Positions 3,436 through 45,074 of a stretch of DNA of 64,000 nucleotides are shown here, in pieces. The position numbers and the translations under genes are program-made. The stretch covers positions 735-64,734 of IMG/VR virus record IMGVR_UViG_3300021255_003269. One strand, 5' to 3'. A model generated the notes under the pieces. It was not told where the DNA came from. It ran no database searches and saw only the letters and a program-made list of their open reading frames with translations. How positions within the stretch are numbered: position 1 is the first letter of the stretch; each line of letters starts with the position of its first letter. This DNA is from a virus. Taxonomy: Duplodnaviria > Caudoviricetes.

Positions 3436-4713
3436 TCAGGCGTTTTCGTCGCTTCGCTTTTCATTTTTTACGAAACCTGTCACACTTTTGGGTTTTGAGC
3501 CTCCAATAAAGGCCGATTCGTTAAAGTTTTTCTTATTTTTCAATGCCCTGGCCATCGCCAAATCGATCTTGCTATCGCTTGTCAAATAATAGTAATATAA
3601 ATCATGATAGGCGGTGTTCAATCTGTCGATCCTGCCAGCTGCCTGCACCATTGTCTTATAACTATAGTTTTGACTATAGAATATAACAGTGTCCGTTTCT
3701 ATGCAGTTCCAGCCTTCGGCTCCGGCAGTGTATTGTACAAGATAGGCCCATCGTCCACCAGTTGGCAATGGCTCATGTTTCTGTCCGTTCCATTCTGCAA
3801 ATGGCCAATTAATGTTTAATAACGTTTCTCTGAGAATGTCCAGCTCATAGTTATAGTTATAGAATATAATTGCACGACGTTTTTCGAACAATATCCTGGT
3901 TATGGAGTTTGCCCGTTCCGGATCGGAATTAACGATCCTCCGCAAGGTATAGCACAACTCTGAAGCTTCTTTGATCGGCTCTTCTGTGTAAGGATTAAAA
4001 CGATGTTTCATTGCAATATCATACAAAGCTTTGCTGTATCCTGTTCTGATCGTCATACTATGGGGGACCGTGCTCTTTTCGAATGACATGCCTACAAGAA
4101 TACTATCACGAAACTTCTCCAATTGCTTTATGTTGCAATATCCACGGATCTGAGGGTACCTTGTGTTGAATCGGTTGTAAATGACATACAACCTCTGAAA
4201 CTCCGTTTTATTCTTAACAAAACCATTGGCTATGAACACTGGTAGATAGTCCATCCAGCAATCTCCTGGAGTGGCACTGAGCAATATCCATTGGTTTCTG
4301 GCTGTGATCTTTAAAAAAGCCTTTGTCCAAGCGCCATAACCAACAACGCGTTGCTCATCAAATATAAAAAAGCATCCTGTAATGGATGTATATTTTTTAA
4401 TATTATTCCAGCTGTCAATTGCCACATGTGCGCCTTTATAACTAGCAGAAGGGTCTGTACTGAGTCCGAATCTGGCGCATTCTCCTTCCCATTCAAAGGT
4501 GTCACGTTTTCTGGCAGTGGTGATAATATAAAGGTCTTTCGGTTTACGCATATTCTCGCAAACTTTGTTGAAATAATAGGCGAGACCCGTTATACTTTTG
4601 CCACTGCCCGTTCCGCCCCAAAGGATCGAACCATTATGCAATCTGTCAAGAGCTGCTTTCTGATGTTCAAATAACTGCATAAAGTGTGGAGAGCGAAGAA
4701 TATCACTCTTCAC
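3436..4713 (-). CDS. SF2 (SNF2-like) helicase
   Basis: Walker A GGTGSGKS, FDEQ, SATP, AGAEGWN and QAAGRIDR motifs. Confidence 0.9.
   Translation of the reverse strand: MKSDILRSPHFMQLFEHQKAALDRLHNGSILWGGTGSGKSITGLAYYFNKVCENMRKPKDLYIITTARKRDTFEWEGECARFGLSTDPSASYKGAHVAIDSWNNIKKYTSITGCFFIFDEQRVVGYGAWTKAFLKITARNQWILLSATPGDCWMDYLPVFIANGFVKNKTEFQRLYVIYNRFNTRYPQIRGYCNIKQLEKFRDSILVGMSFEKSTVPHSMTIRTGYSKALYDIAMKHRFNPYTEEPIKEASELCYTLRRIVNSDPERANSITRILFEKRRAIIFYNYNYELDILRETLLNINWPFAEWNGQKHEPLPTGGRWAYLVQYTAGAEGWNCIETDTVIFYSQNYSYKTMVQAAGRIDRLNTAYHDLYYYYLTSDSKIDLAMARALKNKKNFNESAFIGGSKPKSVTGFVKNEKRSDENA
3470..3492 (+). repeat. 23-bp exact inverted copy of origin iteron 9614-9636
   Basis: ACGAAACCTGTCACACTTTTGGG is the reverse complement of 9614-9636. 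Confidence 0.9.
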
Positions 4714-4736
4714 CCTCCACTCTCCACACTCCTTTC

Positions 4737-5270
4737 TTAGTCGTCCATAATGCCAGCCTTCAGATCATCAAGGCTGCCTTCGTCTTCAAAGATTCGCACG
4801 ACCATCTTGCTCAGGTAAGCGGTTACACCAGTATAAGTCCTGCTTTCGCTCCAACGCCCACGAATGGTCAGGTTGGCCTTTACGATCTGAGCAGAATCCA
4901 GATCACCAACATTACTTTCGTCCATCAGCATTTCACCCTTGCTGCTGACGACGAGGATCTTCGGATTAAGACGGGCAAGATCACTGTCTGCAGGATGATA
5001 CTTTACCTTTACTCGCAACAAATATGTAGGTTCAGCCTGAGGATCACGAGGATTCTCGTTCTTCTTAATGTTCCAGCCTTCTTCCATCAGTTTCTCAACA
5101 TCAACCTGGGAAGGATCCAGAAACACACAGAAATTCCGATCGCCTTCACGGTTATACTGGCCGATCTCCAAGCCACGGAAGTTACGAGGAGTCCAGCGTT
5201 CCGTATTGTAAGGGATGTTCATGTCCTTCAGGATCATCGGTTCAATCGTCTTATGCATAGAAGTTTCCAT
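4737..5270 (-). CDS. Putative single-stranded DNA-binding protein
   Basis: RNFRG...GDRNF pattern, acidic C-terminus, position between polymerase and helicase. Confidence 0.65.
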   Translation of the reverse strand: METSMHKTIEPMILKDMNIPYNTERWTPRNFRGLEIGQYNREGDRNFCVFLDPSQVDVEKLMEEGWNIKKNENPRDPQAEPTYLLRVKVKYHPADSDLARLNPKILVVSSKGEMLMDESNVGDLDSAQIVKANLTIRGRWSESRTYTGVTAYLSKMVVRIFEDEGSLDDLKAGIMDD

Positions 5271-16613: not shown

Positions 16614-17255
16614 TTATTGAATAGGATGAACGCCTTCGATGTCGTCGAATATCACTGGAATACGCCGCTTGAACTCATCAAGCAGATCCGTCATTAAATG
16701 CCACATATCAATATGCGCAGCCGAGTCAGCTCTGAGTTTTAAAATGTGACGCCACTCACGATAATTAGCAGTGATGACCAGTTCAGTTTTCGTACAGTTG
16801 GGCAGTACTGATCTTGCTTGCTGTGGAGTCAGGCCATAAGCCAGCAGCTCAAAATATGCGTCTTCTGCTTTTTGGCATGCTTCACGCCAGGCATTGAAAT
16901 CGGCGGCATCCTCATTCATCCACCAAGGCTTGACAAAAGTAATTTCAGCGCCAAATTTGTCCTTGCTGTAATTGCAATATCTTTGGCTCTCCTGTGCAAA
17001 GGATGCCATACGATGCCGGACCAATTCATGGCTCAATGCTCTGTCGACAGTAAACAATACTGTAATATAACCATGCTCGAGCATCGCCTCATGCCCATTT
17101 GCAATGAGATTCTTAATGAGCCTCCTGGCGCTTCCACCATCTTTTGTGATTTTGTCTTCACTTTTGTAGCAGACTCTGGCGATTCTCTCAATTTTCTTGA
17201 GTCTGCTCGGTCCCAATTGGGAGAGAATCTTGAAATCAGCATTCACGAATTTCAT
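16614..17255 (-). CDS. thyX: Flavin-dependent thymidylate synthase
   Basis: ARVCY, GHEAMLEH, RALSHELVRHRMASFAQESQRY, ARSVLPN and WRHILKLR motifs. Confidence 0.97.
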   Translation of the reverse strand: MKFVNADFKILSQLGPSRLKKIERIARVCYKSEDKITKDGGSARRLIKNLIANGHEAMLEHGYITVLFTVDRALSHELVRHRMASFAQESQRYCNYSKDKFGAEITFVKPWWMNEDAADFNAWREACQKAEDAYFELLAYGLTPQQARSVLPNCTKTELVITANYREWRHILKLRADSAAHIDMWHLMTDLLDEFKRRIPVIFDDIEGVHPIQ

Positions 17256-26998: not shown

Positions 26999-27160
26999 TT
27001 AGTCGTTTTTGTCAGAAATACTTGATTTCATTTTAGAATTTGCTGGCAATGATTGGCAATCTGCAAATTTTTTGAAAAGCTCTATAAACAGTTTGATAGC
27101 AGTATCTTTTTTCATAGTTACTTCCCAATGAGTTGGAGTTGGGATCTTTTTATTGCTCAC
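26999..27160 (-). CDS. Cassette A: possible 53-aa peptide (not in ORF track)
   Basis: GTG overlaps the integrase TGA; stop lies inside R2; contains tandem TGGCAAT so it may be an att arm rather than a gene. Confidence 0.4.
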   Translation of the reverse strand: MSNKKIPTPTHWEVTMKKDTAIKLFIELFKKFADCQSLPANSKMKSSISDKND

Positions 27161-28305
27161 ATCATTTCCCTCGCTTTCTCAAGAATATCAGTTCTGTACT
27201 TAACATAACGTTTTTCTGTTGTTTCGGTTTTGCTATGACCTAATATCCGTGCAATCATGTCTAATGGCATACCATTTCCTCTCCATTCTGTAGCACAGGT
27301 ATCTCTGAAGTCATGGGCAGAATATCCTTCAAAATGAAAGTGTTTTCGGATTCTTTCGAAGGTGCGGCGTGCTGTAGAATAACATATGGGAGACTCCATC
27401 GTTTTATCCTCATCAGCATAAAGCAAGAAACCATGTTTCAGCATTGGTGAAAGAATTTGCTTAAGCTCGGGATGCAATGGAATCTTACGGATACTAGTCT
27501 TTGTTTTAGGTGTCTTAATCTCAGGTTGATTTCGTTTTGGATGAACAACCGCTCGTTGAACAGTAATCCATTCGTCATCAATATCTTCCCAACGAAGGCC
27601 AAGAACTTCTTCGAATCGCATGCCAGTATAGCATAACAGTGCAGCCATTACCTGTTCTTTTCCCGAAATATCAGTCAACCCAGCTTTGATTTCGTCCATC
27701 TTTTCTTTTGGCAAAGCTTTGTGATGGATCGTTTCATGACCACTGATCTCAATGTTTTTGCTGGCTAAAGGATTCTTTGTCAGAATATCATCCTCAACAG
27801 CGGCATCGAATACCGGATTCATAATGTTCTTAATCTTTAAGATGGTTTCTTTGGAGTAAGTCTTCCCGAGACTGTTAAACCATCGCTGGATGTCTGAACT
27901 TCTGATATGATCAATTCGTGTTGATCCAAAAGCCGGCTCAATGTGATTACGAATGATTCGTCCTCGATTGACCACGGTGTTGGATTGTTGTTTTTGCTTA
28001 AATGTTCCATAATATTCTCTGAGGTAGTCTCCAAACAATGGGCTCCTTTTATCATCTTCTATCCACTCCACAATTCCTTCATTGATCAGCAGTTTTACAT
28101 AATTGTCGAACAGCTCCTGCATTGAATATCCATGAAGCCATTTTGTTTTACCATTAACAACAACCTTCTCAGCTAATCTTTTAGGCATACTATTATCTCC
28201 TTCATGTATGCCTTCGCCCAAAGATGTGCAGTTGTCAAGATTCGCTACCAAGCTCAATAGCTGGTTAATGACCTCATCCTTATTATAAATTTTTGTGCTA
28301 TCCAT
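27157..28305 (-). CDS. int: Tyrosine integrase
   Basis: YTGMRFEEVLGLRWEDID, KT(PK), HDFRDT, LGHS and RY catalytic set; SAM-like N-terminal domain. Confidence 0.95.
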   Translation of the reverse strand: MDSTKIYNKDEVINQLLSLVANLDNCTSLGEGIHEGDNSMPKRLAEKVVVNGKTKWLHGYSMQELFDNYVKLLINEGIVEWIEDDKRSPLFGDYLREYYGTFKQKQQSNTVVNRGRIIRNHIEPAFGSTRIDHIRSSDIQRWFNSLGKTYSKETILKIKNIMNPVFDAAVEDDILTKNPLASKNIEISGHETIHHKALPKEKMDEIKAGLTDISGKEQVMAALLCYTGMRFEEVLGLRWEDIDDEWITVQRAVVHPKRNQPEIKTPKTKTSIRKIPLHPELKQILSPMLKHGFLLYADEDKTMESPICYSTARRTFERIRKHFHFEGYSAHDFRDTCATEWRGNGMPLDMIARILGHSKTETTEKRYVKYRTDILEKAREMM

Positions 28306-29192: not shown

Positions 29193-29316
29193 AGGAAAGT
29201 GTACCGGATCGAACGGTCGTAACTTTTGTTATGCTCCCACTAAGCACTCATACTTTCCTAAAGAGGGCGTTTTGCTTTTGATGTTATCTCCTTAGGACAT
29301 TCCAGTCCTCCTCTTC
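29193..29316 (-). ncRNA. Putative ncRNA with a tRNA-like 3' domain lacking an anticodon loop
   Basis: AGGAAAGT/ACTTTCCT stem, TGCT-TAGTGGG-AGCA, TAAC-AAAA-GTTA and ACCG-TTCGATC-CGGT arms; own promoter; U-tract downstream. Confidence 0.6.
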
Positions 29317-29360: not shown

Positions 29361-29771
29361 TTACGCCTTAACCTCTTCCAAATGAAACGTCACATCAATC
29401 CAACCAATCAACATTGTAGTCAATTTCAAATGCAGTTCCAGTTCTTCTCCTAACCAAAATTCCCAGTTCATTAACGCGTCGCTTTTACTTGCTATCAGCA
29501 TAAATAACGGATTGCTAGTCATCATATTTGTGAGCATCTCATAATGCTTTTGCCACATAAACTTTTCGTAATCATTATCTCTGTCCTCGCTCGGTTTAAT
29601 TCCGAGGGCATCGGCTTCACGATTCCAATCAGGTATGTGTTTATTCGCTTCGTTCGCATACTCATTGTAATATACAGGATACAGTCCTTCAATTGCTTGC
29701 TTCATCGCTTCTTCGTTATTCAACGGTCCTTCACCAGTCCAGTCAAACTTCATTGCATAATTTGTAGTCAT
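29361..29771 (-). CDS. Hypothetical protein
   Basis: SD GGAGGAG; promoter at 29810. Confidence 0.7.
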   Translation of the reverse strand: MTTNYAMKFDWTGEGPLNNEEAMKQAIEGLYPVYYNEYANEANKHIPDWNREADALGIKPSEDRDNDYEKFMWQKHYEMLTNMMTSNPLFMLIASKSDALMNWEFWLGEELELHLKLTTMLIGWIDVTFHLEEVKA

Positions 29772-29809: not shown

Positions 29810-29835
29810 TCATTATAGAGCATGTTTCTTACGCG
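29810..29835 (-). promoter_or_regulatory. Phage promoter motif copy 10
   Basis: CGCGTAAGAAACATGCTCTATAATGA; first motif downstream of the late-operon terminator. Confidence 0.75.
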
Positions 29836-29840
29836 AGAGA

Positions 29841-29873
29841 AAAAAAAAGAGCCATGTGCGGGCCACGGCTCTC
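29841..29873 (-). terminator. Late-operon terminator
   Basis: AGAGCCGTG / CATGGCTCT stem followed by T8. Confidence 0.85.
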
Positions 29874-29874
29874 T

Positions 29875-29974
29875 TGCCAGCTTTGGGAGTTGCACCCAAA
29901 TTGCGAGACAAACGTTTATCATGAAAGGAGGTTGAAAGGAGTGAAGAAAGAGCCTCTTCCCAATGTAAGCTGGC
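29875..29974 (-). ncRNA. tRNA-shaped RNA with a 42-nt anti-SD loop in place of the anticodon
   Basis: 7-bp acceptor GCCAGCT/AGCTGGC; T-arm TTGGG-TGCAACT-CCCAA; GAGGC/GTCTC stem closing a loop with two CTCCTTTC motifs. Confidence 0.6.
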
Positions 29975-29980
29975 ATATAG

Positions 29981-30079
29981 AATTCCGCCAGGAGAGGTGA
30001 GGTTGCTAAATATAAGGCTAGCAATGGAACCCTCTCCTGACTTGCGGACACACCGCCATGACCCTCACTCCACGGAATT
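29981..30079 (-). ncRNA. Structured RNA domain 5' of the tRNA-like element
   Basis: AATTCCG/CGGAATT, CAGGAGAGG/CCTCTCCTG, TTGCTA/TAGCAA and GCGG/CCGC stems. Confidence 0.5.
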
Positions 30080-30081
30080 AG

Positions 30082-30414
30082 TTACCAGTTAGGCCCCCGG
30101 AATCCATATCCCCCTGGATAAGGGTACCTACCGGACATATTATCATCATACTCATTCATTGGACTATATGCGCGACTGACATATCGTCCATTTGCTGCAC
30201 GACCGCGACGGCCACTCATGCCAGGTTCTTCTTCCCGGTCATACTCTTCGGCTTCTTTCATAGCTTTATAAGTAGCCAGGCTTTTCATGGTATGAGTTAG
30301 AAGATCAGCTCGTTTAAGGTCGGTCTCACTCATTTCAGCGCCACCTTTAAGCTTCTGTTCGATGGCTTCGAGTTCTTTGCACATGGATTTTTCCAAAGAT
30401 TCGAACTTATCCAT
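30082..30414 (-). CDS. Conserved gut-phage helical protein
   Basis: MCKELE...DLLTHTMKSL...SGRRGRAANGRYVSR pattern (recall). Confidence 0.75.
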   Translation of the reverse strand: MDKFESLEKSMCKELEAIEQKLKGGAEMSETDLKRADLLTHTMKSLATYKAMKEAEEYDREEEPGMSGRRGRAANGRYVSRAYSPMNEYDDNMSGRYPYPGGYGFRGPNW

Positions 30415-44303: not shown

Positions 44304-45074
44304 TTATAATGAGCCTCCAACAAAGTGCACAGTGGCGGATCCAATACCGGAAACGGTAATCTTGTTATTACCAGAAAGTGCCTTCCCCAAATAGACATCG
44401 CCACTGACAGCTTGATTAATCGTCCTGCCGTTCAAAGTCAACGACACCGTGTTTCCTTTTTGCACTGTGACATTGGCCCAAACACGGAACGGGTAGTCAT
44501 AACCTTGGAATACTGTCTGATAAGTAGTATTATTGACAGTAATACCATTCAAGGAAGCATAATAATCGTAATCGGTTTCAAAGTTAAAGTTGTCCCAAAT
44601 CATGTCTTCGTCGCCTTCACTTCTAAGACGAAGCTTATAGGGATTGATTTGATAGTTGATTGTGATCCGGCTGTTACTGGGCTCGCTTCTCCAATTATCG
44701 ACAGAAAAACGCCCTTCCCAATACCAGCCTGGATCATCTTCCAATACAATTTTAAATCTTTTGCCATGCAGATAATTCATGATCCTTTGCCGTATGGTTT
44801 CCCAATACTCATGATCATTATCCACATAAAAGTCCCACGATCCTTGCCGCATACCGTAAATGGGTCTGCTGACAAGGAAAGCGGTCATATCAATAGCGCC
44901 ATCGCGCCCTGGAATCTCTACGAAATTCGTGGAAACTCCAGGGCTTGCGACGCTAGGACGTTCCGAGGGAATCAAATGCCAATCATCCCAGGTGTTGACC
45001 CCCATAAACTGTCCTTCCTTTTCATGGCCGGACGGATACAGAGATCCATCCCCGAAGGTGATTGAATGATACAT
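44304..45074 (-). CDS. Distal tail protein (Dit)
   Basis: VEIPGRDG...YLHGKR...YWEGRF...INPYK; follows the tape measure. Confidence 0.85.
   Translation of the reverse strand: MYHSITFGDGSLYPSGHEKEGQFMGVNTWDDWHLIPSERPSVASPGVSTNFVEIPGRDGAIDMTAFLVSRPIYGMRQGSWDFYVDNDHEYWETIRQRIMNYLHGKRFKIVLEDDPGWYWEGRFSVDNWRSEPSNSRITINYQINPYKLRLRSEGDEDMIWDNFNFETDYDYYASLNGITVNNTTYQTVFQGYDYPFRVWANVTVQKGNTVSLTLNGRTINQAVSGDVYLGKALSGNNKITVSGIGSATVHFVGGSL

Follow-up and report, generated by a model that had tools for sequence, protein, structure and literature searches.

A putative rare family of tRNA-shaped phage non-coding RNAs with an anti-Shine–Dalgarno core

The end of the late operon and its tRNA-shaped element

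The stretch analyzed here (64,000 nt, hereafter the window) covers nearly the whole of a 64.7-kb IMG/VR virus record, IMGVR_UViG_3300021255_003269. The minus strand carries all its genes. The structural and lysis block occupies 63966 to 30082, where the last late open reading frame (ORF) has its stop codon, and the next ORF starts at 29771. The 310-nt gap between them contains, in minus-strand order, a long hairpin, a 100-nt tRNA-shaped element, an intrinsic terminator, and a copy of a repeated promoter motif. The 100-nt element is the subject of this analysis. A tyrosine integrase gene (28305..27157) is located 1.6 kb downstream of the element, and many small early or replication genes lie beyond it. 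The features of the gap are as follows.

29985..30047, minus strand: long hairpin, CAGGAGAGG/CCUCUCCUG plus CCGC/GCGG, between the stop codon at 30082 and the element
29875..29974, minus strand: tRNA-shaped RNA element, 100 nt from G+1 to the discriminator A
29968..29974, minus strand: 5′ strand of the acceptor stem, GCCAGCU, pairing with 29876-29882
29922..29952, minus strand: CU-rich central stretch, with CACUCCUUUC at 29943..29934 and ACCUCCUUUC at 29932..29923
29883..29899, minus strand: T-arm with a 5-bp stem and the 7-nt loop UGCAACU (UUGGG-UGCAACU-CCCAA)
29876..29882, minus strand: 3′ strand of the acceptor stem, AGCUGGC, pairing with 29968-29974
29875, minus strand: discriminator A; no CCA is encoded
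29836..29874, minus strand: intrinsic terminator, GAGCCGUG...CAUGGCUC plus U9
29810..29835, minus strand: one copy of the repeated promoter motif, CGCG-N-AAGAAACAT-N5-TATAAT

The element combines a 7-bp acceptor stem and a T-arm with the linker GCAAU, has no D stem, and carries GAGGC and GUCUC around 42 nt. A preliminary description of this locus, made from the letters alone, had read the acceptor, the GAGGC/GUCUC flanks, the linker, the T-arm, and the discriminator in the same way, and its parse matched the sequence exactly. The CU-rich stretch is mostly unpaired by prediction (P 0.58-0.83) and contains two CUCCUUUC cores, at 29941..29934 and 29930..29923. Besides these two cores, the transcribed strand of the window contains no CTCCTTTC. 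Altogether, the element holds two or three copies of the anti-Shine–Dalgarno (anti-SD) motif, and by its sequence the CU-rich stretch appears to be a mimic of the 3′ tail of 16S rRNA. A possible antiterminator, in which GGCUCUUU could compete with the 3′ strand of the terminator, was not conserved in the closest relatives and was dropped.

Homologs, covariation, and the conserved core

Homologs were found by three routes: a structure descriptor, a covariance model (CM R1), and a pattern scan of metagenomes. The descriptor (7-bp acceptor, 5-bp T stem, and U..A loop) produced dozens of chance matches per genome. It led to an intergenic copy (L011:16541-16660) in the related phage IMGVR_UViG_3300028805_000118 (G004), whose acceptor differs in sequence yet pairs, whose T-loop is UGCAAGU, and which carries UUUCCUCCUUUCA in a hairpin loop. 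The two-copy covariance model built from the window and G004 retrieved a third copy (L105:1501-1619) in IMGVR_UViG_3300028805_000086 (G007). This copy has the canonical T-loop UUCGAUU and contains AUCACCUCCUUU, which equals 12 nt of the 16S tail. The pattern scan, which demanded CCTCCTTTC, yielded four metagenome contigs in two sequence variants (L225 and L232; L229 and L240) and the contig L217. The four contigs reproduced the synteny of the window exactly, with a homolog of the upstream 110-aa ORF, the hairpin, the element, a homologous terminator, and the CGCG..TATAAT promoter. L217:4098-4171 is a weaker, 74-nt candidate on a low-GC phage contig, located after an ORF and 220 nt before a tRNA-Pro gene. 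A second model, CM R2, gave 100.5 bits at the window element and 38-99 bits in six homologs. For L217 the score was only 25 bits with a misaligned acceptor, and its fold was read by eye and by constrained folding.

The single-sequence fold of the window element was slightly better than those of shuffled sequences (z = -2.25). In the three independently found copies, the acceptor and T stems were 100% paired, and 6 of the 12 pairs were changed on both sides, a result reached by 0 of 500 shuffles. With seven distinct rows, 96% of the cells were paired and 7/12 pairs were changed on both sides (again 0/500 shuffles). Four of the seven acceptor pairs had both-side changes across homologs. When the 3′ partners were slid by 1-3 columns as a control, only 39-46% of the cells were paired. 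Thus, the element is more than a chance fold: barely so on the window alone, and clearly so through its homologs. Stems that covary and still pair across homologs indicated that the tRNA-like minihelix is selected as an RNA structure. The covariation analysis suggested in the preliminary description therefore came out positive for the acceptor and T stems. The 5-bp GAGGC/GUCUC stem that it placed at the anticodon position was not conserved, being specific to the window with no counterpart in the closest relatives.

The family shares the upstream hairpin, a 7-bp acceptor (8 bp is possible in some), a 2-nt linker, and a short linker before the T stem. The T stem has 5 bp (4 in some), and its 7-nt loop reads UGCAAnU in five of the six types; the remaining type has UUCGAUU. 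The discriminator is A throughout (U in L217), CCA is never encoded, and a terminator is present everywhere except in L217. G+1 was found in 5/6 types and U-1 in 3/5 independent types (the window, the metagenome group, and G004). No D stem was present in the window, the metagenome copies, G007, or L217; only the G004 fold has a small hairpin there.

The central arm is about 35-70 nt long, folds differently by type, and could not be aligned between types. Its closing stem has 5 bp in the window, 4-8 bp in the metagenome copies, 6 bp plus an inner 7-bp hairpin in G004, 11 bp in G007, and 7-8 bp in L217. A common feature was that CCUCCUUU(C) was observed in the arm of every type, with an unpaired P of 0.58-0.98 in six types when the tRNA stems were constrained. 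To judge by its letters, CCUCCUUU(C) corresponds to the core of the anti-SD tail of 16S rRNA, and this exposed core is the sole sequence kept in the variable arm. The window, G004, and G007 are the only independent witnesses of its conservation; G004 and G007 were found without requiring CCUCCUUU. The loop motif, whose conservation the preliminary description had made a test of its reading, was thus kept in all homologs. The two anti-SD motifs named there fared differently: the second (AACCUCCUUUC) was kept in the closest relatives, whereas the first becomes CUCUUUC. RNAalifold analysis of these relatives indicated that a purine run, GGAAG(A/G)G, pairs with the first pyrimidine motif and leaves AACCUCCUUUC free. 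A CAU or CAC was also present 4-10 nt upstream of CCUCC in the window, G004, G007, and L217, and was lacking in the metagenome copies. By this post hoc observation, the central loop may read like the antisense of a complete start region in 4/5 independent types.

All copies are sense-oriented and follow the last ORF of the late or lysis block; in G007 the order is endolysin, holin-like ORF, 117-aa ORF, and element. The window terminator directly abuts the element (stem 29875..29845, then the U-run), and G004, G007, and the metagenome copies each have an equivalent terminator after the element. The element has no promoter of its own, and the motif at 29810..29835 is the start of the next transcription unit, outside the RNA. 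The sense orientation, the lack of an own promoter, the directly following terminator, and the late-gene position argue for an RNA produced at the tail end of the late transcript. The orientation and the adjoining terminator bore out the earlier placement of the element at the end of the late operon. A hairpin occupies the corresponding upstream position in G004, G007, and the four metagenome copies, and may serve to shield the 3′ end left on the preceding mRNA by cleavage.

The promoter-like motif, CGCG-N-AA(A/G)AAACA(T/C)-N5-TATAAT followed by GAAGA/GAGGA, is common to the window, G004, G007, and the metagenome copies. The window has five minus-strand copies (29835, 29340, 25089, 18476, and 16613); others are at 16859 in G004 and at 44927 and 47335 in G007. 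The motif may serve an RNA polymerase encoded by the phage or be a strong promoter of the host type. Another candidate non-coding RNA is located just behind a copy of this motif, at 29193-29316 (minus) in the window and at L011:16715-16850 (+) in G004, where it occupies the same position, right after the terminator and promoter that follow the element. Its ends pair (GAAGAGG/CCUCUUU in the window and GAAGAAG/CUUCUUC in G004), and it has a tRNA-like part with the canonical T-loop GGUUCGA, no anticodon loop, and no Rfam match. Its architecture recalls that of the bacterial Y RNA YrlA.

Further searches added no members. A blastn search with an 800-nt query gave no match in 50,697 phage records, and the exact 24-mer of the T-arm and acceptor gave none in IMG/VR. 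Synteny via the upstream 110-aa ORF led to five relatives in which the DNA beyond the ORF was unrelated, and nothing was found with the downstream 136-aa ORF and the C39 peptidase as baits. For the pattern GTCTCGC..GGGTGCAA.TCC, G004 was the sole real match and the others looked like chance; GGGAAG..GGGTGCAA.TCCC matched 42 loci, mostly real phage tRNAs, with no new member. A direct repeat, CACTGGTA, around the G007 copy was not seen at the other copies and was dropped. Four high-GC metagenome matches (L205, L221, L224, and L239) were rejected as members: their ends pair, and the opposite strand is a leader before an ORF. These four share a conserved stretch of about 100 nt with CCUCCUUUC and GGUGGGUGCAACUCCCACC, which adjoins a tRNA 3′ end in L205, L221, and L224. 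On the opposite strand, a P1 stem, CCAGCCG/CGGCUGG, encloses two hairpins directly before GAAAGGAGG and the ORF; this stretch may be a riboswitch-like leader.

CM R1 and R2 were run over 53 related phage genomes and returned no further member beyond G007; the family was absent there (0/53), and the weak matches were all antisense gene starts. CM R2 found no copy in 49 host genomes, which were those of bacteria carrying related prophages. With the helicase as bait, more than 490 relatives were found in IMG/VR and 191 in bacterial genomes, mostly of gut Clostridia. The element is carried by a small group of gut and rumen phages, and the family is rare.

Identity and possible functions of the RNA

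ARAGORN found no tRNA or tmRNA in the window and no tRNA at the homologous loci. In Rfam 15, the element was unmatched at the gathering threshold, with no tRNA or C4 match even at E <= 10. Both programs had been proposed as checks in the preliminary description, and neither recognized the element, indicating an undescribed RNA family. The element has the 7-bp acceptor, the 5-bp T stem, and the 7-nt T-loop of a tRNA (U at position 1 and A at position 5); it has neither a D-arm stem nor a cloverleaf with a 5-bp anticodon stem and a 7-nt anticodon loop. A decoding tRNA was therefore rejected, as there is no anticodon stem-loop, the 35-70-nt central arm folds variously, and ARAGORN made no call. 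A tmRNA was also rejected: pair 3 is C-G or U-A and not G3:U70, the central arm has no conserved frame or stop, and ARAGORN found none. The tRNA-scaffold RNA of the preliminary description was confirmed as a conserved tRNA-shaped element by its homologs, covariation, and sense orientation. We conclude from these comparisons that it represents what appears to be a real, undescribed, and rare family of tRNA-shaped phage non-coding RNAs with an anti-SD core.

The T-loop UGCAAnU occurs in real phage tRNAs, and UGCAACU in bona fide tRNA-Ile(UAU) genes. In unrelated IMG/VR phages, tRNA-Ile(UAU) genes with the T-arm GGGUGCAACUCCC were observed at L252:6487-6562, L254:8214-8289, and L268:5064-5139. 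In these T-arms, G replaces U at T-loop position 2, as in the core of the tymovirus tRNA-like element. A further tRNA-like sequence at L024:1040-1130 (minus) has a D-arm, GCUC...GAGC, and the T-loop UGCAAAU; it adjoins a called tRNA-Ser and has no ARAGORN call itself.

The anti-SD core is the sole arm sequence kept and is exposed, so pairing with Shine–Dalgarno (SD) sites is the most economical function. The coding strand of the window has 14 GAAAGGAG sites, whereas 2.9 would be expected on the two strands combined, and the ribosome-binding sites (RBSs) listed in the preliminary description were all among them. The density of GAAAGGAG per kb on the late and early sides was 0.03 and 0.44 in the window (binomial p = 0.0004), 0.12 and 0.39 in G004 (p = 0.07), and 0.07 and 0.55 in G007 (p = 3e-5). 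The early-side bias was also present in G001, a relative without the element. In the window, G001, G004, and G007, early and replication genes prefer the 5′-extended SD (U)GAAAGGAG and structural genes prefer GGAGG(U) or AAGGAGG. For this comparison, 4.7-26 kb of the window was set against 30-64 kb. GGAGGU is an RBS of the late type and UGAAAGGAG one of the early type.

Duplex energies of the loop were computed for 89 start regions of the window. The medians were -12.4 kcal/mol for late and -12.65 kcal/mol for early genes (p = 0.45), and the early/late trends in G004 and G007 were opposite. Early-gene selectivity or host shut-off, as first suggested for this RNA, was therefore unsupported, the GAAAGGAG bias being found also in G001. 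Within the window, the loop was predicted to pair best (-22.7 kcal/mol) with the region around the start of the conserved helicase gene at 4713. This region (4690-4760, minus) contains several purine blocks in a row, AAGAAAGGAGUGUGGAGAGUGGAGGGUG, and the same blocks recur as an inverted repeat farther on, inside the gene. Complementarity to the 5′ ends of promoter-driven transcripts amounted to just 6 nt, probably upstream of the transcription start, and was dropped.

The function that we prefer, tentatively and with clear doubts, is that RNase P and RNase Z excise the RNA from the late transcript and that the RNA then pairs with SD regions. The layout fits excision by tRNA-processing enzymes so far as it can be read from sequence, with the upstream hairpin, a 12-bp acceptor/T stack, a T-loop, G+1, a discriminator A, no CCA, and a terminator. 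The RNA would be transcribed as the last part of the late operon. RNase P would cut before G+1, so that the upstream mRNA would end in the conserved hairpin, and RNase Z would cut after the discriminator A and remove the terminator. In Firmicutes, CCA-less tRNA precursors usually take this RNase Z route. The product would be a stable RNA of about 100 nt, in which the acceptor stem would stack on the T-arm and a variable arm in place of the anticodon arm would display the unpaired CCUCCUUU(C). This exposed pyrimidine stretch could pair with purine-rich GAAAGGAGG-type ribosome-binding regions and compete with 30S subunits.

Several observations weigh against this proposal. The four metagenome copies and L217 are not independent evidence for the core because the search pattern required CCTCCTTTC, and the structure of the central arm comes from single-sequence folds since the types could not be aligned. 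The loop is predicted to pair with start regions about as strongly as the 16S tail does, and its energies fail to distinguish early from late genes. The target search turned up nothing specific or conserved, and no homologous gene was shared as top target; the G007 homolog of the helicase ranked 89th of 152. With such energies and no tailored target, the RNA seems to be either a mimic of the 16S tail or a binder of SD sites in general, and a general binder would hit the phage's own late messages too. The family is also rare, with 0/53 related phage genomes carrying it. The appearance of a general binder keeps two other functions, a cis-acting 3′-end module and an anti-SD decoy, in play.

A module acting only in cis, which processes, stabilizes, or terminates the late transcript while its CU-rich stretch binds a protein or lacks a trans target, seems rather unlikely. 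It would account for the constant position between the last late ORF and the terminator with a hairpin upstream, and for the failure to find a specific target. A stabilizer, however, needs no exact and exposed anti-SD core kept across arms that otherwise cannot be aligned, and most relatives that have these promoters and terminators do without the element.

We give a low probability to a decoy of the 16S tail, in which the tRNA frame would offer CCUCCUUUC to absorb a factor that cuts the anti-SD (a MazF- or RelE-type toxin) and so spare the ribosomes in late infection. Toxins capable of cutting or removing the 16S rRNA anti-SD are known (PMC12274833, PMC12620021). The identity of the conserved core with the 16S tail, which extends to 12 nt in G007 (AUCACCUCCUUU), the two or three motif copies in the window, and the lack of a conserved mRNA target are consistent with this reading. 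Against it, no toxin, antitoxin, or defence gene was linked to any copy of the element, the flanks of the core differ from 16S in most copies, and the reading is drawn wholly from analogy. More broadly, a stable stand-in for the 16S tail on a tRNA body might serve either as such a decoy or as a 30S-docked molecule that holds a message start through the anti-SD/anti-start stretch, though we regard this as a long shot. If true, either version would be a phage control of translation initiation without a described precedent.

A DNA-level feature without RNA function, either an attP core or a decayed phage tRNA gene near the integrase, is very unlikely. Many integrases target tRNA genes, the tyrosine integrase is 1.6 kb downstream, and the T-arm resembles those of phage tRNAs. 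Both acceptor strands covary between phages, as expected if pairing is selected in RNA, whereas attP needs just one part of a tRNA gene. A pseudogene would not retain 96-100% pairing. In addition, no copy was found in the 49 host genomes with related prophages, and the G004 integrase is 7.7 kb off on the other strand.

It is highly improbable that the opposite strand is the functional one, with an RBS and a start codon for a leader peptide or a small antisense gene. The reverse complement does read GGAGG, 4-10 nt, and ATG or GTG in the window, G004, G007, and L217, and the weak CM matches elsewhere were all antisense gene starts. However, the frames that result from this have 19 aa, no closed end, 6 aa, and 1 codon, respectively, and show no peptide conservation. 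The four metagenome copies lack a suitably spaced start codon, and coding cannot explain a covarying acceptor stem. The chance that the element is a decoding tRNA, whether one with an intron, the alternative named in the preliminary description, or one whose anticodon loop is oversized, is practically nil despite the tRNA-like acceptor stem, T-arm, and discriminator: ARAGORN with introns allowed found none in the window or at the homologous loci, no excision of the insert leaves a 5-bp stem and a 7-nt anticodon loop, the central arm varies from about 35 to about 70 nt with differing folds, and the introns found in bacterial tRNA genes belong to group I and are well over 200 nt long.

Relation to known RNAs

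The satellite phage P4 CI RNA is tRNA-like. Among phage antisense RNAs matured by RNase P, C4 of P1/P7 occludes an RBS (PMC5320573). Like C4, the element would be a phage small RNA cut from a longer transcript by host RNase P. The exposed loops of C4 pair with messages, one of them occluding an RBS (PMC5320573, PMC4919922). However, there is no sequence or CM similarity between the two. C4 consists of three hairpins, whereas the element has an acceptor stem and a T-arm. The targets of C4 are specific and in its own immunity operon, whereas the element has generic SD complementarity and no extended, conserved, specific target. C4 lies in the immunity region of phages of Proteobacteria; the element ends a late operon in phages of gut Clostridia.

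RsaE/RoxS, the RNAIII hairpins, and LhrC resemble the element in having unpaired pyrimidine motifs complementary to the SD, often in several copies. Such C-rich or UCCC small RNAs of Firmicutes are thought to block 30S binding. They are stand-alone bacterial genes from promoter to terminator, with simple hairpins and a UCCC motif. The element, in contrast, is phage-borne, located in a 3′ untranslated region, and based on a tRNA frame; its anti-SD, CCUCCUUUC, is complete, and it has no Rfam match.

In MALAT1, RNase P and RNase Z release a tRNA-like RNA, mascRNA, from the 3′ end of the transcript (PMC4919922). The RNase P cut creates both the 3′ end of the upstream RNA and the 5′ end of the small one, whose 3′ end is formed by RNase Z (PMC4919922). 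The order of hairpin, tRNA-like fold, and trailer is shared with mascRNA and menRNA (MALAT1 and MEN-beta), for which the 3′ end of the upstream RNA is protected by structure (PMC4919922). These RNAs are eukaryotic and have no anti-SD, and for the element, processing is predicted from its layout.

The Rfam family Tymo_tRNA-like (RF00233) has an identical T-arm core, GGGUGCAACUCCC, at the 3′ end of a viral message. It matched the element with 18.4 bits (E = 0.12), short of the gathering score of 40, and the T-arm alone aligned. The G at T-loop position 2 in bona fide phage tRNAs explains this weak match. RF00233 comes from plant RNA viruses, and the element lacks its pseudoknotted acceptor and anticodon-like arm; the likeness of the T-arms is convergence or chance. 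Phage tRNA-Ile(UAU) shares the acceptor stem, the T-arm, the discriminator, and the G at T-loop position 2 with the element. Unlike phage tRNAs, the element has no D stem in most copies, no anticodon stem-loop, and no ARAGORN call. Ordinary phage tRNA genes are the likely evolutionary source of its frame, and the tRNA frame with a replaced anticodon arm is its distinctive feature.

If the RNA is made and processed as proposed, Gram-positive gut phages would reuse the tRNA frame and the maturation enzymes of the host for anti-SD delivery. The family would then unite three themes hitherto seen apart: the RNase P-processed antisense RNAs of phages, such as C4 of P1/P7 and CI of P4, the pyrimidine-loop small RNAs of Firmicutes, and the tRNA-like RNAs released from transcript 3′ ends. 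On the same premise, the element would be a natural and compact scaffold on which short antisense loops could be stably expressed in Clostridia.
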